Source of the DNA: a virus | Taxonomy: Duplodnaviria; Heunggongvirae; Uroviricota; Caudoviricetes | Length of the DNA stretch: 64,000 bases | Reading direction: 5' to 3' (one strand) | Virus record (IMG/VR): IMGVR_UViG_3300022821_000011 | Coordinates: 13,134 to 77,133 of that record | Shown here: positions 14,900-63,047 of the stretch, piece after piece | Numbering within the stretch: the stretch's first letter is position 1 | How the letters are laid out: each line of letters opens with the position of its first letter | Translations under genes and position numbers: made by a program | The notes under the pieces: model-generated | Told to the model about the DNA's origin: nothing | The model's input: the letters and a program-made list of their open reading frames with translations, nothing else | Database searches by the model: none

Positions 14900-14963
14900 G
14901 GAAGTTCTTGAAAGTCATAGTTTTACCCATCTGGAACTATTTGTACTTTCAAGAACTTCAATG
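14900..14963. repeat. Conserved hairpin element, copy 3
   Basis: GGAAGTTCTTGAAAGT...ACTTTCAAGAACTTCAATG. Both stem and loop are homologous to copy 1. Confidence 0.75.
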
Positions 14964-15284: not shown

Positions 15285-15313
15285 ACTATATACTGTGTTC
15301 TATATGGTGTCAA
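15285..15313 (-). promoter_or_regulatory. Sigma70-like promoter TTGACA-17-TATAGT for ORF 15045..15260
   Basis: Plus-strand tgtcaa at 15308-15313; SD AAGGAAA precedes the ATG at 15260. Confidence 0.55.
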
Positions 15314-47398: not shown

Positions 47399-48058
47399 TT
47401 ATTCTTCATATTTAGATTGCGCTTCTGTTGCAACCCAATAAACAATAGAATTCGATTTAAACTGCGAAATACCTTTTGATGATAAACTTACTTCATAATC
47501 ATTATTCATAAGCTTGAGATTTTCTGCTTTAAAAATCATATTAAAAGCTTTTTCTGTTACACCAACAGCAATAGAAAAAGAATCTGAAGAAGAAGACTTA
47601 TTATTCATGGCTTTAACATAAATTGTACCATCTTCGCCAACAATCGACATCTCAGGAACCTTAAGAACAGATAATGCTCTTTGCACTTTATTTAAATCAT
47701 CACTTGTAAGATTAAATACAATATCTACTGAAGGAAGACTCACTTCTTTATTAGGAGGAGAAATAACCATCGTTGGGTCTGTGTATACATATCTAATAGC
47801 TTTTTTATTTTCACTAATTTTCATATGATCATCAAAAAATTCAATTTCAGGATCACCAAAAAGACTCATTGCCCCAAGAAATTTTGATACTTCATATACA
47901 GCAAAATCCTTTGGAAAACTATCATCTATAGTTGCTTTAGCAAATATAGTTTTTTGTGGAGAAATAGTAGAAAGAACATTACCAGCTTTTACTGATAATG
48001 ATGGATTAATAGTCGCAAAGTTTTTAAGTATACTAAGCGTATTTTCAGAAATTTTCAT
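47399..48058 (-). CDS. gp45: Sliding clamp (T4 gp45-like)
   Basis: MKISENTLSILKNFATINPS is similar to gp45 MKLSKDTTALLKNFATINSG. Confidence 0.8.
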   Translation of the reverse strand: MKISENTLSILKNFATINPSLSVKAGNVLSTISPQKTIFAKATIDDSFPKDFAVYEVSKFLGAMSLFGDPEIEFFDDHMKISENKKAIRYVYTDPTMVISPPNKEVSLPSVDIVFNLTSDDLNKVQRALSVLKVPEMSIVGEDGTIYVKAMNNKSSSSDSFSIAVGVTEKAFNMIFKAENLKLMNNDYEVSLSSKGISQFKSNSIVYWVATEAQSKYEE

Positions 48059-48367
48059 ATTTTATGCACTCCATTTTTTAAAAAAATTCGACCAAATATT
48101 AGTTTTTTCATTTTTATATTCTATATCTAATATCAATGGCCAAACTAAACCATTCAAATTATAAATCATTACACCACTGTTTCCCACACCAGCAAAAGCA
48201 GCATCATATCCATCAAACCAAGATGTAATAGTATTGCCTATTGCTTCTCTATCACCATCTTTTTCAATAATAAATTTTCTATTCTTAGATTTTATTATAT
48301 CATGATAAGCTTTATTTGTCAATACTTTAAGCTTTTTCTTTTCTTTTGTCATTATATAAGTATTCCT

Positions 48368-49186
48368 TTATTCTATTTTAGAACTAGATAAATCTTTTGT
48401 AGATCTATTTGTTTTCTTCTTTAACTGACTTGGATCTGCTGTTGCAGAAGCTCCAATAGAAGCTAAATCTTGTAACGACCCTCCAAATATATAAGTGCCA
48501 ACGTGATTCATCTTCATCCATGGGCAGAACCAGACTTTACCACCTGCTTTTTGCACATCATAACAGAAAAGATAATCCTCAGATAAATATCTTCTAGAAT
48601 CTGGATCAATTGCAGCCTGGAAGAACATATGAATTTCTCTATCACCACTAAAGTGTTCTGTTCTAACATGATCTGGTTTATAGCTTTTTTCTGGATAAGA
48701 CTTCATATAATCTTCAAATGTTTTACGTCTGATCATCATGAAACCAGTTCCAATTTCTAAAACTTCTACTGGCTTATGAAGAGAAATCGAACCACTGCCC
48801 TGTTTTGGATTAAATACATAATCACCAACATACTTTTCAAGAACATTTGGGTCATCATCAGCAACACCACGATCTACAGCAAGTTTAATTTTTTCCCACG
48901 AAATACACTTCTTCGGATATGGCCCACCAATTACATCATATTCTGATTCGTCAGTCTGAAGAGCTAAAAGAGCTAATACATCTTTTGGATCAAATCCAAT
49001 GTCAGAATCGATAAACATAAGATGAGTCGCGCCAGATCTCATGAATTCATCACAACAATAATTTCTTGCACGAGTGACAAGAGATTCATTAAAAAGAAAA
49101 TACATCTGTAATGGAATTTGATATTGGGCGCACATAGCAGAAAGATCTGCAATCGATCTAGCAAACATTCCTGCACAATTTCCCAT
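48368..49186 (-). CDS. Putative GT-A-fold glycosyltransferase (DxD motif in LMFIDSDIGF)
   Basis: Motif-level only. Confidence 0.35.
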   Translation of the reverse strand: MGNCAGMFARSIADLSAMCAQYQIPLQMYFLFNESLVTRARNYCCDEFMRSGATHLMFIDSDIGFDPKDVLALLALQTDESEYDVIGGPYPKKCISWEKIKLAVDRGVADDDPNVLEKYVGDYVFNPKQGSGSISLHKPVEVLEIGTGFMMIRRKTFEDYMKSYPEKSYKPDHVRTEHFSGDREIHMFFQAAIDPDSRRYLSEDYLFCYDVQKAGGKVWFCPWMKMNHVGTYIFGGSLQDLASIGASATADPSQLKKKTNRSTKDLSSSKIE

Positions 49187-49544
49187 TTATATTCGCATAG
49201 ATTCGTAATATCTATACCGCTTTCGCTGCTTTATATTGCTATAAAGATTAGACTATATCTTCATCCCAATTTATTGGGAGCTGGGCGCTTCGAAAACCAT
49301 GTACTTGTTTTCTACTCCTTTCGGATAGTCGTTGAACCTTCCATTTTTCAATGGCTTGGCTGCTGATAATCCACGCGGGACGTCCCAGCAATTCACCCAG
49401 TTATCATCTTTAAATTACTTTAAAGTGAGGCAGATTTACCATACATAGGAGTTGCAATGAACAATTTCTTTTTTCTTAATTCTTCAATTGGAACTTTTAA
49501 TTGAAATCCTTGATTTGGTGCTTGTTCTTCTTTTTGTTCTTCAC

Positions 49545-49895
49545 TCATTCTTTTTTATTCCCTAAGTTATTTACATCATGGTTGTGTAATTGTATCATTG
49601 TGTAATGAATAATTTTTAAAAGATCATTACGATTATACCCAGCTTTTCGCCCATATCTTTGAGCATATTTTAAAATATTTCCCATACAAAAACCAGTGCC
49701 GTGACCGGAGTCCAAAATGAACTCCGTGGCTTGATACTTGTTTGAAGAATAATGTTCTTGATAAGTTGAGTCAACATATTGTTGCATCTCATCAATATAT
49801 TTATTCTCATTATATTTGTAATTTGGGGATTCGTCTGGAAATATCGTAAATTTGATTCCAGGTTTTGTTGTTTTATTCATTTCATCATCTTTCAT
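49545..49895 (-). CDS. DUF3310-like phage protein, with a T4-type late promoter TATAAATA 18 nt upstream
   Basis: Plus-strand tatttata at 49913-49920. Confidence 0.4.
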   Translation of the reverse strand: MKDDEMNKTTKPGIKFTIFPDESPNYKYNENKYIDEMQQYVDSTYQEHYSSNKYQATEFILDSGHGTGFCMGNILKYAQRYGRKAGYNRNDLLKIIHYTMIQLHNHDVNNLGNKKE

Positions 49896-49924
49896 AATAA
49901 AGTCCTTACAAATATTTATATAGT

Positions 49925-50629
49925 TTAGGCTGAAGCTTTAGAAGTACTTGTATTTTTATTTTTCACAAGTTCTTTTCTATCAGAATCGCTATATATTGCG
50001 TCCATCTTTGCTGCGGCAGATCCTACTGAAGCAGAAGAAGCAGCAAAAGCCGAATTTCTAGAAGCAAGATCACTAAATGTACCTCTCAAATTAGACTTAT
50101 TAAATGTAGCAGAATAATCGCCTTTAAAACCATAATTCATACCAGCAGCAAAGCCATCTTGATCAGCACCAAGATAAATCATAAGCCAATCATCATTTTC
50201 TTTCTGAGAAATAAGCTTCTTAATATCATCAGCCTTAAATTCCTTAGAATGATTTTCATGGCCATCTGTTATTACGACAAAAGCTACAGCTTCATTCTTT
50301 TCAAGCTTTACTTTCTTATCAATAAACTTAATTGATTCGCCAATAGCATCAAACAAGTTTGTCATACCATTTGGTTGATATTCATCAACATGTCTCTTAG
50401 CTTCTGTTGGTGAAACACATTCACAGACATTTTTGATCTTATCACCTTCAAAGAATGTAATAGATACTGATGTGCTTTCTTGGTCAACCGATGTCAAATA
50501 CTCATTAAGAGCTTCTACTGTTTGATTTCTATCAGCCATCATAGATCCAGACTCATCTACAACTAAATGAGCATATAGTTTACCAGTGTTCTTTTTAATT
50601 AATTTTGCCATTATTTTTTCCTTATTCAA
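49925..50629 (-). CDS. vWA-domain protein (MIDAS VVDESGSM ... NGMTNLFDAIG)
   Basis: DxSxS ... T ... D MIDAS residues. Confidence 0.65.
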   Translation of the reverse strand: MNKEKIMAKLIKKNTGKLYAHLVVDESGSMMADRNQTVEALNEYLTSVDQESTSVSITFFEGDKIKNVCECVSPTEAKRHVDEYQPNGMTNLFDAIGESIKFIDKKVKLEKNEAVAFVVITDGHENHSKEFKADDIKKLISQKENDDWLMIYLGADQDGFAAGMNYGFKGDYSATFNKSNLRGTFSDLASRNSAFAASSASVGSAAAKMDAIYSDSDRKELVKNKNTSTSKASA

Positions 50630-51830
50630 AAAATGTTTCTAGTGTGTTTTGTTTTTCATTCCAATTATCATGAGACTTATTCAAATTACTTTGAAATAAG
50701 TAATCTGTCTCGATGAATTCACGATTACCATCAATCACATTCTTTATTTCTGTTGCCATATCCTTTGATGTTTTATAATGAACATTTTGGCAAATGTGAT
50801 TAACCGATTTAGTTGGATTTAATAGCTCAAAATCAGCTGGTAAACCCATAATAGTCATTGCTTCTCTATATGTTATATAGCGATCTTCATATGGATGAGT
50901 CAGAACATTTGGATAATGCCCAACAAAAGCTCCAATATAATCTTTTGGTATAATAGTTCCCCTTCTCATAATATTACCGCCGGCTGCTAATTTATGAAAT
51001 TTTCTATTACATTTTGGAACTTCTCTATCATATCCATTTTTAGCCATCCATTCTCCAACAACATCATATGTATAACCGGCTCTTTCGATTAAAGACTCTA
51101 TATCATTTCCTCTAACATTCTTTGTTTCAAGAACATCAAAAAACTCACGATGAGTTATGCCACCATGTATTTCTTCTAACATATATCTATAATATGGATC
51201 ATCTTTTGATGGTGTTTTAGAGTTGATTGGCTCCATCTGAAAATTGCTAGTAACACCAGTAATAACATCTTCAATTTTATCATGGGGTCTATTAAAATAT
51301 TGAAGCAGTGGTGTTTTTTCTCCAAATTCTTTTTTGTTCCAAAAGAAATAAAACGATCTTTTTCTGAATTGAGGAACACCATGTAATATATTTTTAGTTA
51401 AATATAAACTCATTCCATAACCATTCTTAAGAGAAATATCTCTTAATTTATCAAGCATGAATTTACCAATCTTCCCTGCTAGCGCTGGGGCATTCTCACC
51501 CCAGAACACTAGTGGCTTTACCTCGCCTAAAACATAATTAGCAGTCTTTTCCATCCATTGATTATTTTGATTATCTTCTCCAGCTTTATGATGATATTGA
51601 CTTAGACCAGCGCATGGACATACTGAAGAAACAACATCAATTGGATAAGGAAAAGAGCCACCTTTATCAAGAAGATAATAAGGAACTTCATTATTATAAT
51701 AATTTAATAAATGAGATTCATTTGCTTCAAATGGTGAATAACTTAAAATATACTCAGGTCTATTTCCCCACACTTCATCAGAAGCTAGAACTTCTCCTCC
51801 TATAAGTGGTATTATACTAGCGTGTTTCAT
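50622..51830 (-). CDS. C5-cytosine-DNA-methyltransferase-like protein
   Basis: Motif I-like IPLIGGEVLA (compare LFAGLGGFRLA), motif IV-like SVCPCAGLSQ (compare GFPCQAFS), motif VI-like WGENAPAL (compare ENV). Confidence 0.45.
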   Translation of the reverse strand: MKHASIIPLIGGEVLASDEVWGNRPEYILSYSPFEANESHLLNYYNNEVPYYLLDKGGSFPYPIDVVSSVCPCAGLSQYHHKAGEDNQNNQWMEKTANYVLGEVKPLVFWGENAPALAGKIGKFMLDKLRDISLKNGYGMSLYLTKNILHGVPQFRKRSFYFFWNKKEFGEKTPLLQYFNRPHDKIEDVITGVTSNFQMEPINSKTPSKDDPYYRYMLEEIHGGITHREFFDVLETKNVRGNDIESLIERAGYTYDVVGEWMAKNGYDREVPKCNRKFHKLAAGGNIMRRGTIIPKDYIGAFVGHYPNVLTHPYEDRYITYREAMTIMGLPADFELLNPTKSVNHICQNVHYKTSKDMATEIKNVIDGNREFIETDYLFQSNLNKSHDNWNEKQNTLETFFE

Positions 51831-52924
51831 ACAAATAAATCCTCTAATGTAGATCTTTCAATTCCATTATATTCTAACCCCTGCCAATATGGATAATATT
51901 CTCTAGATATATGAACAGATTTTGGTTTTTCCATTACTTTAAAATCCATCTCTCCTTCTGCATTATAAAATTCAGGAGTTATCCATTCTTTAATTTTGAT
52001 ATCTGTTCCTTTAGTGCTAATACACAATCTCTCTTTAAAATATTTACGTGCGGTATCCCTGTTTTCCCACGAGCCATAATATGATGTCCCATTGTAATGG
52101 CCGCTTTTTGGGATATTTCGTCGTGTATTTTCAATAGGAAGTAATTCATAGATGGCTTTAGTTTCATATTTCATCTCACTTACTTGTTTTACATAACGAT
52201 CTACTAAATTATTTACAGCAGCTTTCATATCATCAAATCTACATATATGATGTCTTATATCGATATTACCAAAATAAAATTCTACATGATTTATTCCAGG
52301 CTCAATAAAGGACTCAAGTCCCATTTCAAGGGCGCCATGGAGTGTTTTATAAGGAACTGAATTTATATTCCATCCTGGCCTATACATGCATATAGCATGG
52401 CTATCTCCAACAACTAACTTATCCCATGGACCTTTTGGTTTAATAACAATAGCTCTTTTTTGCATTTCTCTTAAATTGGCGACATCGACTTCAAGAAATT
52501 CTTTTATAATTCCTTCTTTGCCGTGCTTGTTTTCGAAATGGTTAAGCTTATTTTCAAGCATTGTAGCATAATCTGGCATATTATAATCAATGGAATAAAC
52601 TTCTCCTTTAAACCATGATATATTTCTAATATTATATGCGTGTGGAAATTCTCTAACACCACCAAAGAAATTCAAATCAGTAGAATCAGCTTTACGGTCG
52701 TTTCCATGATACATGTATAATCTATCATATTTATTAAAGTCTTCGGTTTTGTTTTCTTCTTTAGCCTTCTCTCCTTGCACGCTAGGTCTTGAAAGACTAA
52801 CTGTTATATCATCACAATGTCTACTTTGTTTAAGCAAGTCTGCATATATAACTCCTTGTGCAGCTCTATGACTTGCTAACTGAAACGATATTGGAATAAA
52901 TGGAGCGGCAATAACTGATTTCAT
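51827..52924 (-). CDS. Hypothetical 365-aa protein in the modification cluster
   Basis: No recognisable motifs. Confidence 0.3.
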   Translation of the reverse strand: MKSVIAAPFIPISFQLASHRAAQGVIYADLLKQSRHCDDITVSLSRPSVQGEKAKEENKTEDFNKYDRLYMYHGNDRKADSTDLNFFGGVREFPHAYNIRNISWFKGEVYSIDYNMPDYATMLENKLNHFENKHGKEGIIKEFLEVDVANLREMQKRAIVIKPKGPWDKLVVGDSHAICMYRPGWNINSVPYKTLHGALEMGLESFIEPGINHVEFYFGNIDIRHHICRFDDMKAAVNNLVDRYVKQVSEMKYETKAIYELLPIENTRRNIPKSGHYNGTSYYGSWENRDTARKYFKERLCISTKGTDIKIKEWITPEFYNAEGEMDFKVMEKPKSVHISREYYPYWQGLEYNGIERSTLEDLFV

Positions 52925-52933
52925 ATCAAATCC

Positions 52934-54016
52934 TTATACAAAAAAACTATCTAATGTGGACCCACTCTTTTTTTCTTCTATTTGACTAGCAATATCAAAA
53001 AATGAATCAAAGGTTAATGGAAGCATTCTTTTTTCTTGAGCTTTTGGATTATCTTTAATTCCTAAAAAGCAATTAAATTGACAGAAGGTTATTTCAGTTC
53101 CAAATGTAGTTAATTTACCACCACGTTCTAAATTATTTTGAAACCAAAATAAGTCAGAATCTTTTAAATCAAAAAACTCATACTGATGTTTCTTAACAGA
53201 CACAATAAATTTTTCCATTATAGAATTATTTGAAAACTTAACATCTGGAAAAACGAACTCAAGACCTCTTTTTGCTCCTGGACCAACTAAACAATAATCT
53301 TCATCTTCATCTATATGAGAAAGATCTATACTTCTAGAAAAATTACAGGGAGGATGATAAGAAAAATAAGGACCTATTCCACGATGCTGTAAAAGCCAAT
53401 CACAGACATCTTTAAGTTTAGATTCTGGATTTTGAACCACATCACTCATTCCCTGTCGATCTAGTTCTTCTATCCATCTTATCATATGAGATAATTTAAA
53501 TGGAGCTTCTTCATTTTGCTCTTGAATTCTAACAAAATTTCTTGCTGCTGTTTGAAGACTTGTTTGGAGCTGAGTAGCTCCCCACACTTTAGTCTTAAAG
53601 CGATTTTCATCTAAATTTTTATTGATAAAATCATAATATTCTTCATGTTTAGAATATTCATCAAAATTTATAATATTTGAATAATCAGAAGAATCTGTAG
53701 CCACTAAAGTTAGTGTTGGCATCCCAACAAATTTAACAGCCATAGCATTTAAAATTTTGTTTTTCATAGAAGTTTCTTGATTAAAAACAAAATTTTCTAA
53801 CCAAAAAACTTCAGCATGTTTAGATCTATTTGGATTCCAATATGAAACAGCTGGTCTCATAGCAGATCCAAATAAATCTGAAACATCATACTCTTCTAAT
53901 CTATTTGATTCTCTTAGATATTCTCGTTTAAAGAAATCGATAACCCAATCTCTAAAATAAGAAAAATTATCAGCATTTTTAAAAGAATTTAATTCTGATA
54001 AGTTAAATGTATTCAT
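52934..54016 (-). CDS. Hypothetical 360-aa protein in the modification cluster
   Basis: No recognisable motifs. Confidence 0.3.
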   Translation of the reverse strand: MNTFNLSELNSFKNADNFSYFRDWVIDFFKREYLRESNRLEEYDVSDLFGSAMRPAVSYWNPNRSKHAEVFWLENFVFNQETSMKNKILNAMAVKFVGMPTLTLVATDSSDYSNIINFDEYSKHEEYYDFINKNLDENRFKTKVWGATQLQTSLQTAARNFVRIQEQNEEAPFKLSHMIRWIEELDRQGMSDVVQNPESKLKDVCDWLLQHRGIGPYFSYHPPCNFSRSIDLSHIDEDEDYCLVGPGAKRGLEFVFPDVKFSNNSIMEKFIVSVKKHQYEFFDLKDSDLFWFQNNLERGGKLTTFGTEITFCQFNCFLGIKDNPKAQEKRMLPLTFDSFFDIASQIEEKKSGSTLDSFFV

Positions 54017-54019
54017 ATA

Positions 54020-54436
54020 TTAAAATGGTACTTCATTAACATTATATGATAAATCATCATCTGTTTCAATATGTTCTCGATTTCCGATCATAACAACTTT
54101 ACTTTTATTTGGCATAATTTTTCTAACTTCATCTGCCTGAATCGGATCATCTTCAAAATGATAAACGACACAAACACCAATCTCATATAAATGTTTAAGA
54201 GTTTTGGCTTTATGTTCTCCAGATGAAAGTCTACCATAGAGAACATCTGTTCTTGATAAAGGATTAAAGAATACAAAGTTATTTATACCTCTTCCTCGAA
54301 GCATACTGAGAGTTTCATCTTTTTGTTGATAAGATCTTCCGGTAACAATAATATCATCTGGGCCAGGTCTTAAACCTTCATGTTGAGCACCCATAAAAAT
54401 AACTCCGTCTATATCATAACTATTTAATGTAATCAT
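54020..54436 (-). CDS. Small HAD-superfamily phosphatase-like protein
   Basis: Motif I YDIDGVIF (DxDGx). Confidence 0.5.
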   Translation of the reverse strand: MITLNSYDIDGVIFMGAQHEGLRPGPDDIIVTGRSYQQKDETLSMLRGRGINNFVFFNPLSRTDVLYGRLSSGEHKAKTLKHLYEIGVCVVYHFEDDPIQADEVRKIMPNKSKVVMIGNREHIETDDDLSYNVNEVPF

Positions 54437-55713
54437 TATTCATAATCCGTTTGTGATGATTGAAAAGTATAATCTAAATTATCAGCTTTTGGATTGTTTA
54501 AAACCAACTGTTTTTTAGTAAGACTAGTAAGTTCTCTTCTTGCTAAAGCATCACACTCAAATTTAGCATCTTCTGTCTTGAGTTGAAGAGGCGGGGTTTT
54601 CTGAGTCCAAGCTGAAGGACCTCTTAAGTATCCAACGACTCCAAGTTCAGAAGCCACCTTACAAAATCTAATAGCAGATATTACAACTCCACCGGAATTT
54701 GGAGAATCTTGAACAGATAATCTAGCAGTCAATTCATATCTGGCCCCACCAAATCCATAAGCAATAATATCAAAATTGGCTATCTTATTATCAGTTCCAA
54801 TATATTCTCCGCCAGGTTTTTGCATAACTGTTAATGATGGGCCTGCAAATAAAGTCATACCAGCAATAGATTCATCTCTTACAGAATTTTGACCCTTTAA
54901 AACATTTTCTTTTGAAATATGCTTATCATGAAGTCTATATTCTTTAGCCATATTAAGAAAATCGCAATTGGCTGTTCTACCAGTTCTTATTCCTTCTTGG
55001 CCCTGAGTTGAGCCAGAGGCCATATTAGTCTGAATATGTTGTGTAACCAACAGCCCAGAATCTAACATTGCTCCCTGAAGAACTTCTGATAATCTAGAAG
55101 CTCCCCAAGCCGATCTCATATCATTACCAACAATAGTTAATCCTTTGTCAATAAATTTTTGTTCAATTCTCTTTGTTGTCTTTGTATCAATAAGAGTTGG
55201 TATGCAATTTACAAAATGAACTCCAGCTTCTAAAGCTGCATCAACATAAAACTTAGTTGCCTTTTCAGATCCAACTGGAAGATAATTAACTAACACATCT
55301 ACTTCATATTTTTTTAAAATATCTACAATATCATCATATGATTTTGCTGATTCAGCCCCAGTTCTAAAAGAAACTGCTTCTGGATATTCCAACATATGTG
55401 GTGCAATTCCATCTAATTCTGGGCCAGAATAAACCATTGCATTTTTAGATACACAAGTATCATCAATAGTTTCAACATGATCCATTGCGCAATTTGGTTT
55501 TGCTCTAAGAGCTACAGATAGATGTCTGTTTACTTTTCGCCTATCAACATCGAATCCAACTACAAATTGAAGATCATTAACAGTATAACCTCCAATGTCT
55601 GAATACATTAATCCAACTTTATCTTGTGGATTTTGTATATAGTATTGAACACCTTCTACTAGGGATTTAGCACAGTTTCCTGCGCCAATAATTCCAACTT
55701 TAATTTTTGACAT
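54436..55713 (-). CDS. ino1: myo-Inositol-1-phosphate synthase homologue (Ino1/MIPS family)
   Basis: N-terminal Rossmann signature VGIIGAGNCAKSLVEGVQYY matches the MIPS GxGNCASSLVQGVxYY motif; size 425 aa. Confidence 0.75.
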   Translation of the reverse strand: MSKIKVGIIGAGNCAKSLVEGVQYYIQNPQDKVGLMYSDIGGYTVNDLQFVVGFDVDRRKVNRHLSVALRAKPNCAMDHVETIDDTCVSKNAMVYSGPELDGIAPHMLEYPEAVSFRTGAESAKSYDDIVDILKKYEVDVLVNYLPVGSEKATKFYVDAALEAGVHFVNCIPTLIDTKTTKRIEQKFIDKGLTIVGNDMRSAWGASRLSEVLQGAMLDSGLLVTQHIQTNMASGSTQGQEGIRTGRTANCDFLNMAKEYRLHDKHISKENVLKGQNSVRDESIAGMTLFAGPSLTVMQKPGGEYIGTDNKIANFDIIAYGFGGARYELTARLSVQDSPNSGGVVISAIRFCKVASELGVVGYLRGPSAWTQKTPPLQLKTEDAKFECDALARRELTSLTKKQLVLNNPKADNLDYTFQSSQTDYE

Positions 55714-55777
55714 ATTGTTCTCCTTTATATCAGTTTTTTACGTGGCAATTTGTCTGGAGCAGAGTAGGCCACAAATA

Positions 55778-56266
55778 TTACTCTTTAGTGTCTGCATATT
55801 TAATAATAATCACTTCAATATTTGATTCATTATATAATTTCTCAGATTTTAACCATTCTTCGTTCCAATGATCTGATTTATAAATATCTTCTTCTCTTAT
55901 TACAACTGTATTTATGCCAGATTGAATAATAGACAAAGCACATTTTGAACATGTAGGAAGACCACACGAATAAAGCGTAGAATCTTTTAAAGAAACTCCA
56001 ATCAAATTCGCATTATGCATTGCATTTAATTCAGCATGAATAGTCAATCCATATTTAACTTCTCTATTATTTAGTCTTTCCTCGGTATCATCAATTCCTC
56101 TTGGAAACCCATTATAACCAGTTGATAATATCTGGCCTGTTTCTGGAAACACTACTACAGCACCTACACAAGTAGACGGATCTTTACTCCATGTTGAAAC
56201 AGACTTAGCAAGATTCATATATCTAATATGCCATTTTAAACTAGTGTACATACTTATCACCAACAA
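55778..56266 (-). CDS. cd: dCMP deaminase
   Basis: HAELNAM plus the PTCSKCA zinc-binding motif. Confidence 0.8.
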   Translation of the reverse strand: MLVISMYTSLKWHIRYMNLAKSVSTWSKDPSTCVGAVVVFPETGQILSTGYNGFPRGIDDTEERLNNREVKYGLTIHAELNAMHNANLIGVSLKDSTLYSCGLPTCSKCALSIIQSGINTVVIREEDIYKSDHWNEEWLKSEKLYNESNIEVIIIKYADTKE

Positions 56267-56421
56267 AAAATAAAAGTTTAGACGCGCTTAATATCGCTAC
56301 TCCTGATATTTGAAAATACATAATTGATAAAGATAATGAATAGTGTATAAGCACATATTTTCCAATTGGAATTATTAAATAACCATTCAATAAAATAAGT
56401 AAAAGTATTACAATTATAACT

Positions 56422-57150
56422 TTAATCATTTCCCCACACTTTCTCATATTCTTCTTTTGTTATACTAGAAAGTCTAAGTTTATCCCAGGCTTCAACCATC
56501 CAAAAATGTTTTTCATAAATATGAAGAGAACCAACTTGCCAAATAATTTTATGAGAAGTGAGACGCAATGAAGTTGAAACCAAACCAGCTACATAATCCT
56601 GCCAAGCATAATCATTACGATAGCCAAACACCACATCATTGCTTCTCATTTGTACAATAACAACAAGCTCGTCATTTCTTATGAGATATTGAACAGTATT
56701 TGTACAAATAAAATCTGACATTCCATCTCTATTATAATCAGTATGCATAGTAGGTCTAGTATATATCATAATAGCTCTACGAGAATCTGGATTTAATCTT
56801 AATTCTTTTACTACATTCCAATACTGAGCACCATTATGATGAGTACAATTATTTGAATCAGACCAAACACACCAACCATAATTAGAATTAATTTCTCCAG
56901 ATGGCGTAGAAACACTTTGCCAAATAGCTGGAACTTTTCCTTCTATATCATCAACATTGAGAGACATACTATTATACCAATTTAGCTCTCTTTTAATATA
57001 CTCATGATTTAACGGTCCAAATATTAACGGCTCATTAGCTTCGAAAGAAGCTCCTTGAATTTCAAGAGTTTTAACGCTGGTTTTATCTATAACAAAATTT
57101 TCATTTGCTAATTCATCTGAAAATGAATTTCTAATATATTCTACATTCAT
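56422..57150 (-). CDS. gp42: dCMP hydroxymethylase (T4 gp42-like)
   Basis: VIDKTSVKTLEIQGASFEANEPLIFG...EINSNYGWCVW...NPDSRRAIMIYTRP...GMSDFICTNTVQYLIR...MRSNDVVFGYRNDYAWQ...GSLHIY is near-collinear with T4 gp42. Confidence 0.9.
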   Translation of the reverse strand: MNVEYIRNSFSDELANENFVIDKTSVKTLEIQGASFEANEPLIFGPLNHEYIKRELNWYNSMSLNVDDIEGKVPAIWQSVSTPSGEINSNYGWCVWSDSNNCTHHNGAQYWNVVKELRLNPDSRRAIMIYTRPTMHTDYNRDGMSDFICTNTVQYLIRNDELVVIVQMRSNDVVFGYRNDYAWQDYVAGLVSTSLRLTSHKIIWQVGSLHIYEKHFWMVEAWDKLRLSSITKEEYEKVWGND

Positions 57151-57643
57151 GTTTTTTTCCTGTTCAGAAAATCTCTATCATCTTGCTGGCCTTCTATTTT
57201 ACCACGAGAATAAGAGACAAAAAATGAAGCATAATTAATTAAGTCTTTAGCAGAATCTTCAAGAGATTCAAAATTTTGGCTATAAAAAGAATCGTGTTCC
57301 ATTGCTTCCATCACAGATTTAATACGAAGCATTTTAGCATGCATTATTTCATATATTGTCTTACATCCAGTTGGATAGTAATCTGACTGAAGAATAGTTG
57401 ATTTATCATTTTGATAATCAGCAGATTTTGCTCTCTGAGTTTCTATACACTCTCTTAATATTTCTATAGATTCTTTTTCTTGTACTAAATCAGGCGATTC
57501 TTTTTCTCCTGAATCTCTATCTTTTTGAAGCACTTTAATATACCTTCCATCTTTATCTCTAATAAAAGAAGCACTCAACAAATCTTCTTCGTTACAATAA
57601 TTATTCTTTATATCATCTTTATACATTATAACACATCCTATAC

Positions 57644-58273
57644 TTATTGTAAATTGTTTTCTATTCTTATTATTGTCTGCATGCGTAATAAATCAGCGGC
57701 AATATCATGTGTACATAAGTGTTTAACAAAACTATCTTTAAAGTCATCTGTTACAAAATCATCTCTTGTATTAGAATCTTCTCCAAATTTAGTCATGATC
57801 CAAGTTCTTATATCTCTTACTTGCCAATACTTAAGAATATTACTCACTGAATTATCTATAGTTGCTTTTGAAAGCATGACATCAAGAACAATTGGGTCAT
57901 AACTATTACCACGGGTCCAACTATATTTAATTGGTTTATATTTTTTTAAGTATTCTTCAAAACTCGTAATGAATTCATTTAAATCAAGATCATCTGAAGA
58001 TGGTGTTAACTGTTTTCTAGCATCTGACGGAAGACCTTTCCACCACTTTAATGAATCCTTATCTAGAATATAATTGTGATTTTTAATAATCTTTTCAAAA
58101 TCTAGTTTTTCATAAAAACATTCACTCACAATTTCTTTAAATTGATATGGATCATTACTAACAAATCTATTTCTATCAAAACAAAATGCTGCCAAACAAA
58201 CGGGTGCGGCAGTCATAGAATTATTTCCTACTGTTTCAAAATCATAAATTACATCCATTTTTATTGTTTCCAA
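57644..58273 (-). CDS. dexA: Exonuclease A (T4 DexA-like, DEDDh)
   Basis: VIYDFETVG, SYDPIVLD, WQVRDIRT and HDIAADLL parallel T4 DexA. Confidence 0.8.
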   Translation of the reverse strand: METIKMDVIYDFETVGNNSMTAAPVCLAAFCFDRNRFVSNDPYQFKEIVSECFYEKLDFEKIIKNHNYILDKDSLKWWKGLPSDARKQLTPSSDDLDLNEFITSFEEYLKKYKPIKYSWTRGNSYDPIVLDVMLSKATIDNSVSNILKYWQVRDIRTWIMTKFGEDSNTRDDFVTDDFKDSFVKHLCTHDIAADLLRMQTIIRIENNLQ

Positions 58274-59034: not shown

Positions 59035-59490
59035 TTAATCCTTTGTTGGATACACACACTCATCAACACAATCATATCCATCACAGCCATCACACATTTC
59101 GCGTAAAAGACCATAATTACCAGTATGATCAGGAGCTACCCAATCATCTGGCTTCATAAGATCTGGAAGTCCGAGTGGATTAGGTCTTCCTTCTTTAATG
59201 CCAACAGTTTTTGACATATTAGCTCTTAACACCTCATCCCATGCTTTATAAGCATCTACAGTAAACGAATCTAAAGTTCCTATAGCAACCACACATATAT
59301 CAACAAGGGCATCTACGACTTCTTCTGGATTGTCTTTATTATCTTCTAATTCGTTTAATTCTTCACGAATAAAATCTATACGAAACTGTAAAAAAGTATT
59401 AAGAGTTTCTTTATCCATTTGTTTTATAGTAGAATGAACATTATAATGTCTATGCATTTCATTAATATCTTTTACCCAATCTTCACTCAT
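59035..59490 (-). CDS. MazG-like nucleotide pyrophosphohydrolase (T4 gp56 dCTPase/dUTPase-like)
   Basis: EEVVDALVDICVVAIGTLDSF...AWDEVLRANMSK aligns with gp56 EIKFELVDIFHFVLNMFVGLGMN...YLKNKENFARQ. Confidence 0.65.
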   Translation of the reverse strand: MSEDWVKDINEMHRHYNVHSTIKQMDKETLNTFLQFRIDFIREELNELEDNKDNPEEVVDALVDICVVAIGTLDSFTVDAYKAWDEVLRANMSKTVGIKEGRPNPLGLPDLMKPDDWVAPDHTGNYGLLREMCDGCDGYDCVDECVYPTKD

Positions 59491-60110: not shown

Positions 60111-60660
60111 TTAAAACCAAAATGGTTGTTCTCGTTTAGTCCATACCATTTTAAATGATTCTTGTTTAGATCTATAATAATTTCTATATGTTGCTATAGT
60201 TTGACCTGGAACAACACAATCTGTTTTATCACCAACAGCTATAACATACGACTGCTGCTGTGATATAACAAATGGAATATTTTTTGGAAAATTAGATAAT
60301 GGATCTAAATACTTTTCAAGAGCACGGTGCTTTTCATATCTAAAAGTATATTCTTTTATAAGAGATTTAAAATGATCAAATAGCCATTTATAGTTATCTT
60401 CACAGTCTCTAACCCAAATTGAGCATGGATGATTTACATGACATGGCTTCATTAAAACATTTTCTCTTTCATCAGAAAGAGACCAATAATCTATCATTCT
60501 TTTTCCAGATTTAGATTGGATTTTTGTTTTAACACCATCTAAAACACGATGAGCAGTAGAGAGCATTTGTGCTGACTCTACTGCCATTTTTAGGACATGT
60601 TTATCGCACTGATATTGTGCGGCTTTTTGTGGGGAATCATCAAGTATAAAAATATTCATT
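60111..60660 (-). CDS. Hypothetical protein. The likely true start is MNIFILDDS at 60660, preceded by the promoter at 60666..60694
   Basis: TTGACA-17-TATTAT ends 5 nt before this ATG. Confidence 0.4.
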
Positions 60661-61113
60661 ATGTAATAATAACATACTATAAAGCAAATGTCAATTATAA
60701 ACTTCAACTATTATATAATAATCTTTATTCATATTCTTAACAAAAGCATTCACTTCATCTTTAGTTTTAAATATCGCTTTTTCAAAAGTAGCTTTATCAG
60801 ATCCACTTAAAATCCAAATCCAACTATCTTCAAACTTTACTTTGATATTGTATGCCATCTATCTTTTACCACTATTGTCTGTTCATAATTCAAATAGCCA
60901 AGATGGCTTTTTATCCATTCAATTAAATCATTATCTATTGTTATGTGATTATCTTTAATCACTTTACTAAAAACTTTTTTAACTGATGGATCCATCGAAC
61001 ACTCCCTTATTTTAAACAATTAAAATAAAAATACTAATGGTGTTGCTTCAAGATTATGATTCTTTATAGACTTACTATCTGTATTTCTACAGCGCTCACC
61101 ATTAGTATTTATT

Positions 61114-62129: not shown

Positions 62130-62500
62130 CTTGATCAAAATAAATTATTAGACGAACCCAAACTAAATTTATTGGAGTATTCTGTTGCTAGGCTACTCCA
62201 GGCCCCAGTACTCTAGTTTCTAATCCACAAAGGGATCAGGCAGCAAGAGCCAAAGGTGCAAAGTTATCGTTTGCGTTTAGTTTCTAGCCAGTCGGCCAAC
62301 CAGTTAACTCCAGTTACTCATTACGCACCCAATCGATCCCAGTTCATCCCCATCAAAAGAAGTGCGACCTTTGTGCACCAAGTCTTTTCAAACACCAATA
62401 GAATATTCTAGCACTTCTTTTGGTGGAGATGGGCGGATTCGAACCGCCGTGTTAAGTGTTTTTTGTTTCCTTCAACGTCAACATATTATTTATATCACAT
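62130..62500 (-). ncRNA. ssrA: Two-piece (circularly permuted) tmRNA gene. The acceptor piece (T-arm GGCGG-TTCGAAT-CCGCC, CATCTCC, ACCA) lies upstream of the coding piece (5' GGGGATGAACTGGGATCGA...). Tag reading frame 62274..62236 is GCA AAC GAT AAC TTT GCA CCT TTG GCT CTT GCT GCC TGA, giving ANDNFAPLALAA
   Basis: The 5' GGGGATG pairs with the 3' CATCTCC. A D-loop analogue GGGATCGA is present. The tag ends ALAA followed by a stop. A 10-bp hairpin AAAGAAGTGC...GCACTTCTTT lies between the pieces. The promoter is at 62489..62517. Confidence 0.65.
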
Positions 62501-62517
62501 TATTTGTTTGGTGTCAA
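62489..62517 (-). promoter_or_regulatory. Sigma70-like promoter TTGACA-17-TATAAA driving the tmRNA
   Basis: Plus-strand tgtcaa at 62512-62517. Confidence 0.5.
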
Positions 62518-62519
62518 CA

Positions 62520-63047
62520 CTTATTTAGTTATCTTTAATAATGTATCACCAATTAATTCTTTTTTTGAAAAAAATTGAACACTCCAATCATAATAAAATT
62601 CTCTTCCACGATAATCATGAATAAAGATCAATGGATTCTTTTTTGTAGATTTTATAAAAATTGTAGCTAATGTAGCAGCCCTAGCTATACCATCTACAAA
62701 AACAAATCAGAATCCCATATATCAAATTTAGGATTTATATAATGATCTAAACCGCAAGCCATTTCTTCGTTTGGAGTTGCAAATTTATAAAAATCAATAT
62801 CAACATTTAATTTAAACATTGTATATGAATAGTTCTTTTTTGGTTGTTCTTTTAATTTTTTGCTAACAATAGAATACCATTCTGGATTATGCTCTATTGA
62901 ATATAAAAATTGGGTGTCTTTAAGTTGTTTTAAAAACCATAAAGTAGACCCACCAGATCCCCATTCGACTATTTTAGCATTATCAGGAAGCGCTTTTAAA
63001 GAATTTTCTAAATAATCTAATTCATTGTTTCTCATCAATGGAATCAA
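62520..63047 (-). pseudogene. Class I SAM-dependent methyltransferase-like gene interrupted by a frameshift near the T-run at about 62700
   Basis: ORF 62694..63047 carries VEWGSGGSTLWF (motif I). The alternate frame continues ...DGIARAATLATIFIK...IFIHDYRG. Confidence 0.4.

Follow-up and report, generated by a model that had tools for sequence, protein, structure and literature searches.

In phage T4, the slot that follows gene 45 and rpbA holds genes 46, 47 and a-gt, as a preliminary sequence-only reading of the locus described here had stated. Relatives of T4 that carry genes 42 and 56 and have no glucosyltransferase have long been known, namely phages 44RR, 31 and 25 of Aeromonas (PMC2993671). 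A further point of comparison is the route established for clade-2 aGPT-Pplases, which proceeds through a C6 thiol and an exocyclic methylene and uses a hydroxyl group, that of serine, as the nucleophile (PMC8989533).

The window analysed here is a 64,000-nucleotide stretch of a caudovirus genome (IMG/VR record IMGVR_UViG_3300022821_000011, positions 13,134 to 77,133), in which the sequence-only reading had proposed that nine genes between gp45 and a dCMP hydroxymethylase constitute a DNA hypermodification or cyclitol pathway. The open reading frames have the positions that it had given. All of them are encoded by the minus strand, their ends overlap or almost abut, and the cluster is not the standard T4 gene set. 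This observation is partly confirmed and its interpretation partly supported: the general idea of a non-glucose, possibly cyclitol-derived hmC decoration, built by genes beside the gp42 pathway, gained evidence, whereas the unity of all nine genes fails. We favour, with modest confidence, a reading in which the locus carries a new post-replicative 5hmC hypermodification module with an inositol adduct as a plausible product. The module encodes three proteins of DNA-base-enzyme type (beta-GT-N-like/SGNH, HMUDK_hel and C5-methyltransferase (MTase)-like) together with a MIPS homologue and a HAD phosphatase, and no T4-type glucosyltransferase is encoded in it. The decoration is most likely undescribed and non-sugar.

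Supply of 5hmC and conserved gene order

The gp42-type dCMP hydroxymethylase beside the cluster (a TS homologue; 56422–57150, minus strand) exhibits 58% identity to T4 gp42 and scores 280 bits to the T4 gp42 structures 1B49 and 1B5E. It carries Cys149, Asp146 (ThyA L143 position), Asp172 (ThyA D169 position) and Asp180 (ThyA N177 position), and the equivalent residues are the same in 41 of 41 distinct cluster TS sequences. By published criteria that separate enzymes of the 5hm type from those of the 5ho type (PMC13326640), the retained ThyA D169 position indicates the 5hm type. Judged by these residues, the cluster TS makes 5-hydroxymethyl-dCMP and is of the 5hmC type rather than the 5-hydroxy-C type. 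The gp42 protein of phage 44RR is also of the 5hm type.

The dCMP deaminase (55778–56266, minus strand), likewise named from the outset, matches PF00383 (E = 4e-18) and phrog_174, and its gene adjoins TS in 41 of the 44 loci with enough flanking sequence. Outside the range first considered, a MazG/PRA-PH-type nucleotide pyrophosphohydrolase (59035–59490, minus strand; PF01503, E = 4e-7) is encoded upstream of TS, as it is in 25–33 related loci, and is conserved with the block. Removal of dCTP, as a dCTPase, is its candidate role. Because the hydroxymethylase, deaminase and MazG-like enzyme would together supply 5hm-dCMP, the phage DNA should contain 5hmC. A DUF3310 protein (49545–49895, minus strand; PF11753, E = 1e-10) may be an hm-dCMP kinase or may serve another role. 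It matches phrog_480 and many ‘nucleotide kinase’ PHROGs; in PHROG families that bear the annotation of phage nucleotide kinase, DUF3310 is the conserved core. In 36 loci the gene lies between the C5-MTase-like gene and the GT-A-like one, and its stop codon overlaps the start of GT-A-like exon 1 (ATGA).

Immediately upstream of TS, here and in about 35 related loci, resides the gene for a 159-aa protein with no Pfam match (57147–57626, minus strand), the stop codon of which overlaps the hydroxymethylase start. A TG-extended sigma-70-like promoter match (TTTACA-17-TATAAT; 57625–57653, minus strand) precedes the first gene of the block. This consensus match is a possible operon start, in a region where the count of promoter matches is not above that of shuffled sequence. 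The module is probably co-transcribed.

Mining of related genomes yielded a set of 82 IMG/VR viral contigs; these are the top-scoring relatives of a single protein and do not count as independent samples. The recurrent gene order is TS, dCMP deaminase, a segment (MIPS, HAD and HMUDK_hel in the window), the SGNH protein and the C5-MTase-like protein. This arrangement recurs at 45–85% protein identity in dozens of distinct contigs, which is far beyond chance. TS lies no more than 7 kb upstream in 43 of 44 loci, and in 62 of 69 the SGNH gene is followed by the C5-MTase-like gene. In the 51 loci whose flanks are long enough, the segment is MIPS-HAD-HMUDK_hel in 31, an alternative three-gene cassette in 17 and a third cassette in 3; none of the 51 carries two cassettes and none lacks one. 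MIPS, HAD and HMUDK_hel behave as one exchangeable cassette that is mutually exclusive with the others.

Proteins of the predicted module

The gene at 54436–55713 (minus strand) encodes a homologue of myo-inositol-1-phosphate (inositol-3-phosphate) synthase, as originally proposed, with a full-length alignment to 1GR0 (182 bits over residues 3–386). It scores 212 bits against TIGR03450, under the equivalog cut-off of 638, and 28.9 bits against PF01658, for which the cut-off is 27. The catalytic Asp and Lys positions are kept, with D198, K264, K268, K310, D336 and K372 invariant among 29–32 family members, and the enzyme is predicted to be catalytically intact; the refutation that the sequence-only reading had tied to a loss of these residues therefore does not hold. 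Of 29 members, 26 carry a conserved insertion of 15 residues close to the active site, and the sequences form a distinct phage clade.

The adjacent small HAD-superfamily phosphatase (54020–54436, minus strand; phrog_415, polynucleotide-kinase phosphatase-like) also proves to be of the suspected type, with D8-x-D10-G-V, T32-G-R, K76 and E95-D-D all invariant. Its gene always accompanies MIPS, which it adjoins in 38–39 metagenomic loci and, among cultured phages, in RP13, Moby and Cr30. In two of these, which are independent of each other, the pair has 5-hydroxymethylpyrimidine DNA enzymes as neighbours. In Caulobacter phage Cr30 the pair adjoins gp123, an amino-acid:DNA-transferase homologue of the ADDT family (PF18724; 179 bits), and in Ralstonia phage RP13 it lies beside the HMUD2 kinase ORF133 and the HMUDK_hel-like ORF120. 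In phage Moby it resides within a FolE-QueC-DpdA-QueE deazaguanine DNA-modification cluster, and examination of a 19-kb stretch there revealed no gene for TS, SGNH or HMUDK_hel. Since the pair occurs in phages without TS or SGNH in the stretches examined, a general-purpose role could apply.

Two proteins of about 360 residues had been described as belonging to no recognizable family, but both can now be assigned. One (52934–54016, minus strand) is an HMUDK_hel-family protein (PF18723, formerly aGPT-Pplase clade 1) with a helix-hairpin-helix DNA-glycosylase-like fold and invariant E308, T310 and C312. This E-x-T-x-C motif, which is also found in M6 gp55 and RP13 ORF120, resembles the catalytic Glu and Cys of the 5-phosphomethyl-dU glycinyltransferase (PUGT), whose catalytic motif comprises E243, T244 and C247 (PMC11472151). 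The protein is a candidate base-flipping or group-transfer partner of the SGNH protein.

The other (51827–52924, minus strand) is a two-domain beta-GT-N-like/SGNH protein, the core of the module, from a family of at least 625 clusters without a Pfam model. Its N-domain is similar to the domain with which T4 beta-glucosyltransferase holds its acceptor (DNA), at sub-threshold scores in each single sequence (12–15 bits; cut-off 27). The residue aligned with Asp100, the general base of the T4 enzyme, is Asn in the window's protein. In the acetyl-esterase-like C-domain, which has an SGNH/GDSL acyl-esterase fold, the GDSH motif is invariant and a G-N oxyanion motif is present. Fold and motifs suggest a role for this domain in hypermodification, the catalytic His and Asp being placed without confidence. 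Aeromonas phages 44RR, 31 and 25 are the cultured phages with this family, and the protein is fused to HMUDK_hel in 44RR and 31, to MTase and HMUDK_hel in P0185, and to F11 in seven metagenomic proteins.

The start of the C5-MTase-like gene (50622–51830, minus strand) overlaps the SGNH gene stop by 4 nt. Its initial assignment is upheld by PF00145 (E = 2.8e-15), with a match that spans profile positions 57–302 only; alignments with HhaI and HaeIII, whether from PDB or hhalign, begin at motif IV. The catalytic motifs IV (PC), VI (ENA) and VIII (QxRxR) are kept and motif I is degenerate (PLIGG). The family invariants are P8-L-I-G-G12, C71-P-C73, G111-E-N-A, Q154/R156/R158 and Q348-N-V.

Predicted chemistry and alternative explanations

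In the favoured model, 5hmC would be flipped out after replication and its hydroxymethyl oxygen activated, probably through O-acylation by the SGNH protein, which would replace the P-loop 5-hmdU DNA kinase of thymidine pathways. Attack on C6 by a thiol enzyme, which may be HMUDK_hel, the C5-MTase-like protein or both, would then expel the leaving group and generate an exocyclic methylene. Finally, a nucleophile specific to the cassette would be added, here a cyclitol; myo-inositol, which MIPS and HAD would produce from glucose-6-phosphate, is the likeliest. The resulting ether-linked 5-(inosityl-oxymethyl)cytosine, if made, would block restriction and other nucleases. The Klimasauskas laboratory reportedly found that C5-MTases can swap the hydroxyl of 5hmC for exogenous nucleophiles in vitro. 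The model is untidy in offering two Cys-type candidates for one step. Weighing against it, M6 gp55, the HMUDK_hel protein of a characterised phage, is dispensable in vitro (PMC8989533). The cyclitol or inositol adduct, a product that we infer, is plausible but unproven, and among the papers searched none ties inositol to phage DNA.

It is possible, if unlikely, that 5hmC is hypermodified but that no cyclitol is placed on DNA. The final base would then have a simpler form, such as the 5-acyloxymethyl-C that the SGNH protein could make or an adduct of another cellular nucleophile, and MIPS and HAD would be accessory enzymes that might draw off glucose-6-phosphate or produce a cofactor, an effector or an osmolyte. 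The SGNH protein is present without MIPS in the Aeromonas phages and in 20 of the 51 metagenomic loci, so it has a function that does not depend on the cyclitol, and no inositol-activating enzyme (cytidylyltransferase or kinase) or acyl-donor-forming enzyme was found in the cluster. O-linked acyl-type 5hmC derivatives also have precedent; a MetaGPA study reportedly found 5-carbamoyloxymethyl-C. However, the strict co-variation of MIPS, HAD and HMUDK_hel, and their replacement as a block at the same position, is the pattern that donor-specific parts would show, and the MIPS-HAD pair recurs beside the Cr30 transferase and the RP13 kinase and HMUDK_hel-like protein.

More doubtful is a mosaic of unrelated accessory genes in a hyperplastic region of T4-like genomes, wherein MIPS and HAD would serve host physiology as auxiliary metabolic enzymes that supply inositol, the C5-MTase-like protein would be a methyltransferase of the ordinary kind, and the targets of the GT-A-like and vWA proteins would be proteins or the envelope. 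The pair's occurrence in Moby, with none of TS, SGNH and HMUDK_hel in the stretch examined, fits this account, as do the many neighbours without annotation, the sporadic vWA gene and a GT-A-like gene that tracks gp45. Yet gene order and content are kept down to about 45% protein identity, start and stop codons overlap, independent fusions join SGNH to HMUDK_hel, and the HMUDK_hel family is known only from DNA-base hypermodification systems. Moreover, a plain C5-methyltransferase would be without substrate if 5hmC replaces C, the SAM motif I of the C5-MTase-like protein is degenerate, and even Moby's pair lies within a DNA-modification cluster.

Least probable is that the C5-MTase-like protein uses SAM or a SAM analogue (compare CmoX and Cx-SAM) to alkylate cytosine that remains in the DNA of phage or host, or some other position there, with the other proteins alone performing hmC chemistry: motifs IV, VI, VIII and X are intact, motif-X Asn included, related clusters sometimes gain an FkbM-type or other methyltransferase, and CmoX, a phage C5-MTase homologue found among the PDB profile matches (8YF3), demonstrates that altered cofactors are usable (PMC12783734), but the cluster has no CmoA or other cofactor-synthase gene, motif I (I-P-L-I-G-G) has other residues in place of Phe and the first Gly, most members carry Lys at the motif-II Glu position in an alignment read by eye, profile alignments never reach motifs I–III, and the gene is translationally coupled to that for SGNH.

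The vWA gene and an intron-split GT-A-like gene

Both of these genes had been counted in the pathway, but neither is supported as a specific member of it. The protein at 49925–50629 (minus strand; phrog_7371) does carry a vWA domain, weakly, with a DESGS MIDAS-like motif (DxSxS), 22.9 bits to VWA_2 (cut-off 27) and E = 4e-10 to the vWA region of TIGR02442. It is not a conserved pathway member, as its gene appears only in near-identical contigs and, as one 27% match, at a distant locus.

A 272-aa reading frame had been taken for the whole GT-A gene, but it constitutes exon 2 only (48368–49183, minus strand). A 254-nt group I self-splicing intron with no open reading frame (49184–49437, minus strand; Rfam RF00028, 83.8 bits, gathering score 50, E = 8e-22) separates it from a 37-codon exon 1 (49438–49548, minus strand), in which MSEEQ...LFIATPMYG matches the N termini of uninterrupted homologues. 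U is the last nucleotide of the 5′ exon and G that of the intron, and splicing joins ATPMYG to GNCAGMF in frame, as in those homologues. The 308-aa product has an invariant F94-I-D96-x-D98 (DxD) motif and is probably a glycosyltransferase; it has no PDB sequence match, and among 10 family members the only Pfam matches are sub-threshold ones to GT-A families (Anp1 in 8, Glyco_transf_21 in 5, Glycos_transf_2 in 2). Homologues adjoin gp45 in Sinorhizobium phages phiM7, phiM19 and phiN3 and occur also in Cr30 and Stenotrophomonas phage DLP_6, such that the gene follows gp45 into phages that lack the pathway.

Hydroxymethylcytosine supply in a T4-like replication region

The genes lying between gp45 and the dCMP hydroxymethylase are best filed as a phage 5-hydroxymethylpyrimidine hypermodification cluster, one that probably works on 5hmC rather than 5hmU. 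Its novelty, so filed, lies in doing without a T4-type glycosyltransferase or a kinase/ADDT (amino-acid:DNA transferase) pair, in the large unnamed enzyme family at its core and in its cyclitol-synthesis cassette. A sequence-only reading had proposed a DNA hypermodification or cyclitol pathway at this position, and what it pointed to holds up and goes beyond routine annotation, with details that needed correcting.

The window has a G+C content of roughly 30%, and nearly all of its genes are on the minus strand. Its T4 replication block contains gp43 (42273-44786) and gp45 (47399-48058), together with regA, gp62 and gp44. By DNA polymerase the closest cultured phages are cyanomyoviruses, at only about 48% identity, and the block as a whole had no megablast match among 50,697 phage records; several metagenome assemblies contain the same phage, its longest contigs reaching 150 kb. 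A permuted, two-piece tmRNA gene of the alpha-proteobacterial type (62171-62521, minus strand; RF01849 at 88 bits and RF04321 at 94.5 bits) and a large set of 23 tRNA genes, situated between 9 and 34661, hint that this low-GC T4-like phage infects an alphaproteobacterium. Elsewhere in the window, the uvsX recombinase gene is apparently split by an intein with a homing endonuclease (39663-41999, minus strand). The three minus-strand ORFs involved are an N-terminal part with Hint/intein matches (41040-41999), an ORF with a NUMOD3 motif (40213-41067) and a C-terminal part that carries the intein C-end and the T4 UvsX C-domain (39663-40223). Upstream of the block lie genes for a PDZ-bearing trypsin-like protease of the HtrA/DegP type (63096-63947, minus strand) and a denV-like pyrimidine-dimer glycosylase (60111-60707, minus strand).

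All ORFs on the original list are present, arranged head-to-tail and closely packed. Overlaps of 4 nt (ATGA) occur at three junctions, namely between the 159-aa protein gene and the hydroxymethylase (TS) gene, between the genes for the 365-aa and C5-methyltransferase (C5-MTase)-like proteins, and between the DUF3310 gene and exon 1 of the GT-A-like gene; the overlap is 1 nt between the HAD and MIPS genes and 8 nt between the C5-MTase-like and vWA genes. Directly upstream of the first gene of the block, a promoter of the sigma-70 kind is strongly matched (57653-57625). Individual strong matches apart, promoter and terminator scans of the region gave counts not above those of shuffled sequence. 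A perfect 12/12 sigma-70 consensus (TTGACA-17-TATAAT, with TG) also occurs at 48294-48322 on the minus strand, inside a 96-aa ORF just upstream of gp45. Profile searches did not reduce the block to standard T4 genes, as its internal genes have no T4 counterpart apart from a weak beta-GT-N resemblance; the 159-aa protein has no Pfam or NCBIfam match, and HMM-HMM comparison tied it to none of the cluster families.

The TS homologue (56422-57150) aligns over residues 1-235 with residues 6-241 of the T4 gp42 structure 1B49 (279.8 bits, E = 1.9e-82), shares 58% identity with T4 gp42 and has its catalytic Cys149 within the sequence FICTNT. A 2026 study reported that many Straboviridae proteins called gp42 actually make 5-hydroxy-dCMP, and named diagnostic ThyA positions: Asp at N177 gives dCMP specificity, Asp or Glu at L143 is the acidic residue that serves as the criterion for a hydroxymethyl product, and Asn at D169 marks the 5-hydroxy type (PMC13326640). 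The homologue carries Asp180, Asp146 and Asp172 at the N177, L143 and D169 positions, respectively. All 41 distinct TS sequences that accompany related clusters share this T4 5-hydroxymethyl signature (41 of 41), and the retention of D169 throughout rules out a 5-hydroxy-dCMP synthase. Because the N177 position is occupied by Asp, the modified base should be 5hmC and not 5hmU. The gp42 hmC pathway that had been named from the sequence is therefore borne out by the match to T4 gp42 structures (about 280 bits), the identity and the 5hm-type residues.

The nucleotide-level part of the module also includes dCMP deaminase and a MazG-type pyrophosphohydrolase, and from this gene content we infer 5hmC, or a derivative of it, in the virion DNA. 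PHROGs annotated as nucleotide kinase match the DUF3310 protein (49545-49895), which is, speculatively, a candidate hm-dCMP kinase.

Proteins predicted to act on the DNA base

Two proteins of about 360 aa had been described as belonging to no recognisable family, a view that profile and structure comparisons overturn: one is a member of PF18723 and the other belongs to an SGNH/beta-GT-N-like family. The latter, a 365-aa protein (51827-52924), has 757 database homologues, none of which carries a Pfam domain, and an exhaustive profile search placed its family at no fewer than 625 clusters at 50% identity. Its AlphaFold model is confident (pLDDT 87.6) and consists of two alpha/beta domains. The protein has the SGNH fold together with the GDS serine nucleophile of block I (G173-D-S175-H) and the G-x-N oxyanion element of block III (G219-N220), both invariant in the family. 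Two sets of invariant residues, H338 (with E332) and D222-x-x-H225, are candidates for the catalytic His/Asp of block V. Pfam SGNH profiles gave no match above noise with this protein; the nearest structural relatives of the SGNH domain are acetyl-specific.

Several lines of evidence, each sub-threshold and together suggestive, liken the N-terminal domain of the 365-aa protein to the DNA-binding (acceptor) domain of T4 beta-glucosyltransferase (BGT). PF09198 is weakly matched, in the same N-terminal region, by 15 of 33 family members, and hhalign pairs residues 38-109 with residues 28-100 of BGT, including the NFFGG loop (63% probability, E = 7e-5). The general base of BGT, Asp100, aligns with Asn115, a position that is not invariant in the family. 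The C-terminal UDP-glucose-binding Rossmann domain of BGT is absent from the 365-aa protein, where the C-domain is SGNH-like instead.

Cultured carriers of the 365-aa family are three phages of Aeromonas (44RR, 31 and 25) with their relatives, and Tenacibaculum phages. The three Aeromonas phages were singled out in 2010 as T4 relatives that have genes 42 and 56 and lack glucosyltransferase genes (PMC2993671). In 44RR, gp42 is of the 5hm type and the a-gt slot is empty. ORF234c of 44RR2.8t (5091-6614 of locus L003), which adjoins a gene that fuses the SGNH and HMUDK_hel proteins, encodes an SSF-family sodium:solute symporter with the generic SSF family and PRK10484 as its sole matches, a possible importer of the group that is added.

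The 360-aa protein (52934-54016) scores above the Pfam gathering threshold of PF18723 (HMUDK_hel) and has a helix-hairpin-helix glycosylase-like fold, with an all-helical model (pLDDT 92.4) predicted from an alignment of database homologues. This family, formerly named aGPT-Pplase clade 1, also includes M6 gp55 (190 bits). Residues E308, T310 and C312 are invariant among relatives of the 360-aa protein, and the resulting E-x-(T/S)-x-C motif also aligns in M6 gp55 and in ORF120 of Ralstonia phage RP13. In PaMx11 gp46 the active site consists of Glu243, Thr244 and Cys247, the last of which attacks C6 of the pyrimidine (PMC11472151). The 360-aa protein was itself considered as an ADDT (PF18724) member and rejected, as hhalign against M6 gp51 gave 0.8% and there is no similarity to gp51 or PaMx11 gp46. 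Sequence and profile searches of the PDB with this protein found nothing. The association of HMUDK_hel with a kinase and a dUMP hydroxymethylase is not seen here: the partner is the SGNH protein, the TS homologue is dCMP-specific, and profile searches found a P-loop 5-hmdU DNA kinase domain in none of the cluster ORFs. M6 gp55, the only HMUDK_hel protein from a characterised phage, was dispensable in the published in vitro reconstitution (PMC8989533).

The 402-aa C5-MTase-like protein (50622-51830) matches PF00145 from profile position 57 onward only (E = 2.8e-15, 57 bits against a cut-off of 22). Invariant across 25 homologues are C71-P-C73, G-E112-N-A, Q154-x-R156-x-R158 and Q348-N-V, and hhalign pairs C73, E112 and R156/R158 with Cys81, Glu119 and Arg163/165 of HhaI. 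The first annotation had named signatures like motifs I, IV and VI. Motifs IV (PC) and VI (ENA) are indeed present, but the motif I position is an invariant I-x-P-L-I-G-G that has lost the Phe and the first Gly. Residues 1-58 are aligned by none of Pfam, PDB profiles and hhalign, and the SAM-binding motifs I-III (FxGxGG and the acidic ribose-binding residue) are not recognised there. Because motifs IV, VI and VIII (QxRxR) are retained while motif I is degraded and the N terminus is unaligned, the protein keeps the machinery for attack at C6, whereas a canonical SAM site is doubtful.

Two further ORFs that had been counted among the pathway genes probably stand apart from it. The 272-aa 'GT-A' ORF is present but is not a complete gene: it is exon 2 (48368-49183) of a gene split by an ORF-less group I intron of 254 nt (49184-49437, minus strand; RF00028 at 83.8 bits, with the gathering score at 50). 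Exon 1 (49548-49438) encodes MSEEQ...LFIATPMYG, and uninterrupted homologues in other contigs read ...ATPMYGGxCAGMF.... Exon 1 ends in U and the intron in G, and the restored junction, MYG|GNCAGMF, agrees with the homologues. The spliced protein has an invariant D96-S-D98 (DxD) motif and only sub-threshold matches to Anp1, Glyco_transf_21 and Glycos_transf_2; PDB searches with it found nothing. Its homologues adjoin gp45 in the Sinorhizobium phages phiM7, phiM19 and phiN3, and occur also in Caulobacter phage Cr30 and Stenotrophomonas phage DLP_6. This distribution argues against the putative DxD glycosyltransferase as a pathway gene, and it is probably no part of the pathway. The vWA gene (49925-50629) is likewise not upheld as a cluster member, with relatives in near-identical contigs only, plus one 27% match in a distant locus.

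Exchangeable cassettes and probable cyclitol-synthesis genes

A scan of IMG/VR with the 365-aa family gave at least 536 confirmed relatives, from which the best 80 loci, together with two further metagenome loci, were analysed; these are the nearest relatives of one query and not independent samples. In this set the order TS, cassette, 365-aa gene and C5-MTase-like gene recurs, showing conservation in related genomes: TS lies no more than 7 kb upstream in 43 of the 44 loci with enough flank, and in 62 of 69 the next gene after the 365-aa gene is the C5-MTase-like one. The genes immediately upstream of the 365-aa gene, which we call the cassette, were counted in the 51 loci whose upstream flank measured 3.6 kb or more. 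Cassette A, as in the window, is MIPS-HAD-HMUDK_hel (31/51 loci); cassette B consists of three families without a known match, F11, F15 and F12 (17/51); and cassette C combines an Asp/Arg-hydroxylase-like protein with a methyltransferase-like protein (3/51). No locus has two cassettes together and none lacks a cassette (0/51 each).

Cassette B is exemplified by the viral loci L063 (7009-10004) and L048 (5688-9978) and by the metagenomic proteins P0200, P0227, P0232, P0241, P0263 and P0307. F11, F12 and F15 have no Pfam or NCBIfam match, and HMM-HMM comparison linked them to no other cluster family; the sole link found identifies F11 and F15 as paralogues. In the cassette C loci L008/L009 (8829-9991), a cupin dioxygenase of the Asp/Arg-hydroxylase-like kind and a small methyltransferase-like protein are encoded upstream of the SGNH/C5-MTase-like pair. 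These two loci also have a gene for a dGTP_diPhyd_N protein upstream of TS.

Gene fusions involve the same partners. The 365-aa and HMUDK_hel proteins are fused in Aeromonas phages 44RR and 31 (the 795-aa ORF233c), a 981-aa metagenomic protein carries the 365-aa/HMUDK_hel fusion in reverse order behind an FkbM methyltransferase, and F11 is the fusion partner of the 365-aa protein in seven further proteins from metagenomes. Because cassettes are swapped and their members fused in this way, the 365-aa protein seems to work with a cassette-specific partner. The pairing of SGNH protein and partner mirrors the 'P-loop kinase + helical domain' arrangement behind the name of PF18723.

The first step of the proposed cyclitol pathway is encoded by a homologue of myo-inositol-1-phosphate synthase (MIPS) that aligns end to end with Mycobacterium tuberculosis Ino1 (1GR0; 182 bits). 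It scores 28.9 bits with PF01658 against a cut-off of 27, and 212 bits with TIGR03450 against an equivalog cut-off of 638. In the 1GR0 alignment the G-A-G-N-C-A NAD motif is kept, and D198, K310, D336 and K372 pair with D197, K284, D310 and K346 of Ino1, residues that we take to be essential. These four residues, together with K264 and K268, are invariant in 29-32 phage MIPS homologues. The original assignment as a MIPS homologue thus stands, with homology over the full length of Ino1 and all of the aligned catalytic Lys and Asp residues in place. A 15-residue insertion in the active-site region (residues ~233-247), common to most phage homologues, could alter specificity.

The adjacent 138-aa protein had been taken for a HAD-like phosphatase, and all four HAD motifs are complete, with D8-I-D10-G-V, T32, K76 and E95-D96-D97 invariant in nine homologues; it has no Pfam or NCBIfam match, and phrog_415 (E = 9e-9) is its sole match. 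The two proteins are apparently a functional cyclitol-phosphate synthase and phosphatase.

MIPS and HAD genes also occur together in cultured phages, with identities of 59.5% in Ralstonia RP13, 46% in the Stenotrophomonas Moby group and 40% in Caulobacter Cr30. The Cr30 gene immediately upstream of the MIPS neighbourhood, gp123, belongs clearly to the ADDT family (PF18724, 179 bits), and gp122 weakly matches the TET-associated glycosyltransferases (TAGT). RP13 ORF133 is an HMUD2 5-hmdU DNA kinase (51 bits), and an alignment of RP13 ORF120 to the 360-aa family spans 241 columns at 89% probability and takes in an E-x-S-x-C motif. In Moby (8207-13621 of locus L002), a 7-deazaguanine DNA-modification cluster has MIPS and HAD inserted between its FolE and QueC-DpdA-QueE genes, a gene order that hints that a cyclitol might also decorate deazaguanine bases. 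With the present cluster, these contexts place MIPS and HAD among post-replicative base-modifying enzymes in four separate lineages. Among the papers searched, none describes this siting, and none ties MIPS, inositol or SGNH enzymes to phage DNA modification.

The thymidine-hypermodification-type genes of Cr30 (5732-7869 and 14855-15655 of locus L004) and RP13 (4915-5889 and 13279-14535 of locus L001) are unannotated in their records. Cr30 gp114, annotated 'terminase small subunit' like the M6 kinase, was not called a kinase, as BLASTP against M6 gp54 was not significant. Cr30 gp107 strongly matches the CBASS inhibitor Acb3.

Proposed chemistry and relation to known systems

A gp42-type enzyme, three homologues of DNA-base enzymes with conserved putative catalytic residues, an apparently functional cyclitol-phosphate synthase and phosphatase, strict cassette behaviour and gene fusions have been shown, and on balance we favour the view that the module hypermodifies 5hmC. 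That a cyclitol ends up on the phage DNA is distinctly more doubtful. Under the proposed route, flipped-out 5hmC would be bound after replication by the 365-aa protein in the fashion of beta-GT, and the SGNH serine would transfer an acyl group onto the hydroxymethyl oxygen. The acyl group would then serve as a leaving group, substituting for the phosphate that 5-HMUDK puts on in the thymidine pathways. A thiol enzyme would add to C6, the leaving group would be lost, and the exocyclic methylene so formed would be captured by a cyclitol hydroxyl. Bacterial C5-MTases can carry out just such an exchange on 5hmC in vitro.

The thiol enzyme could be the HMUDK_hel protein, which is cassette-specific and has the E-x-T-x-C motif, or the C5-MTase-like protein, which is generic and doubtful in SAM binding; the two may work one after the other, or divide strands or sequence contexts between them. 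Capture by a hydroxyl has a parallel in the serine-O capture by ViI gp247 (PMC8989533). Within the cluster, neither an acyl-donor-forming enzyme nor an inositol-activating one was found.

In its broadest form the proposal is tentative and rather unlikely to hold in full: aquatic T4-like phages, together with RP13 and Cr30, would place a self-made cyclitol (inositol) on 5-hydroxymethylpyrimidines with neither a glycosyltransferase nor a DNA kinase, through activation by a beta-GT-derived SGNH enzyme followed by a swap at a Cys enzyme. The swap enzyme in such a kinase-free route would be the helix-hairpin-helix Cys enzyme, a SAM-independent C5-methyltransferase homologue, or both. If true, a carbocyclic polyol ether would be a new class of DNA base, and the exchange would be the first natural nucleophile exchange on 5hmC by a methyltransferase fold.

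Phage DNA hypermodifications set resistance to restriction, CRISPR and glycosylase defences, and have yielded enzymes for epigenetic sequencing. To these the module would contribute a large enzyme family without a Pfam model, a repurposed C5-methyltransferase fold and the first link of cyclitol synthesis to DNA modification. A question that has stood since 2010, the fate of hmC in Aeromonas phages 44RR, 31 and 25, which lack glucosyltransferases, may find its answer in this module. Because the cultured phages RP13, Cr30, 44RR, 31 and 25 carry parts of the module, it is directly testable.

The thymidine systems of M6, ViI, PaMx11, SP10 and PhiW-14 share with the module a TS homologue that makes the 5-hydroxymethylpyrimidine nucleotide before replication, a nearby cluster of DNA-acting enzymes that includes HMUDK_hel, modular and exchangeable tailoring or donor genes and, likely, chemistry based on C6-thiol attack and an exocyclic methylene. 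Here, in contrast, the base should be 5hmC, and the cluster has neither a P-loop 5-HMUDK nor an ADDT/aGPT-Pplase-2 protein. The SGNH/beta-GT-N-like and C5-MTase-like proteins stand in place of the kinase and ADDT, and the donor cassette is MIPS and HAD rather than amino-acid or PLP enzymes.

With the T4 glucosyl-hmC system (gp42, gp56, gp1 and alpha-/beta-GT) the module shares the hydroxymethylase family, dCMP deaminase, a pyrophosphohydrolase, the replication-gene context and, at a suggestive level, the likeness of the 365-aa N-domain to the beta-GT acceptor domain. Unlike T4, it has no GT-B glucosyltransferase; an SGNH esterase-type domain with GDSH replaces the UDP-glucose-binding half, and the extra DNA enzymes and the cyclitol cassette have no T4 counterpart. 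The arabinosyl-5-hydroxycytosine clusters of RB69 and DLP3 likewise belong to T4-like phages, place TS beside a small, 1XPJ-like HAD phosphatase and make the appended moiety from a sugar phosphate with cluster genes, but their TS homologues are D169N and make 5-hydroxy-dCMP, whereas D169 is kept here (41/41), and they use GT-B arabinosyltransferases and NDP-arabinose, neither of which is seen here (PMC13326640).

Compared with bacterial and archaeal inositol-3-phosphate synthase and inositol monophosphatase, the phage pair keeps the NAD motif, the catalytic Asp/Lys positions and the adjacent phosphatase. It differs in its minimal HAD protein in place of an IMPase fold, its 15-residue insertion, its lower profile score (212 against 638 bits) and its setting in viral DNA metabolism.

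The CmoA/CmoX/CmoY system of cyanophage S-B43, which makes 5-carboxymethylcytosine, offers a likeness in its phage C5-MTase homologue, repurposed so that it installs or processes a handle on which later hypermodification builds; CmoX, however, keeps a SAM-type pocket (Phe25, Glu47 and Asp69) and needs CmoA (PMC12783734), whereas here motif I is degenerate, CmoA is absent and the cytosines should already bear a substituent at C5. Among cultured phages, the C5-MTase-like protein has its nearest relatives, at 32% identity, in the cyanophage S-TIM54/S-TIM5 group (6986-8203 of locus L091), non-T4-like cyanomyoviruses in which the gene lies near those for a ThyA homologue and a 560-aa hypothetical protein.
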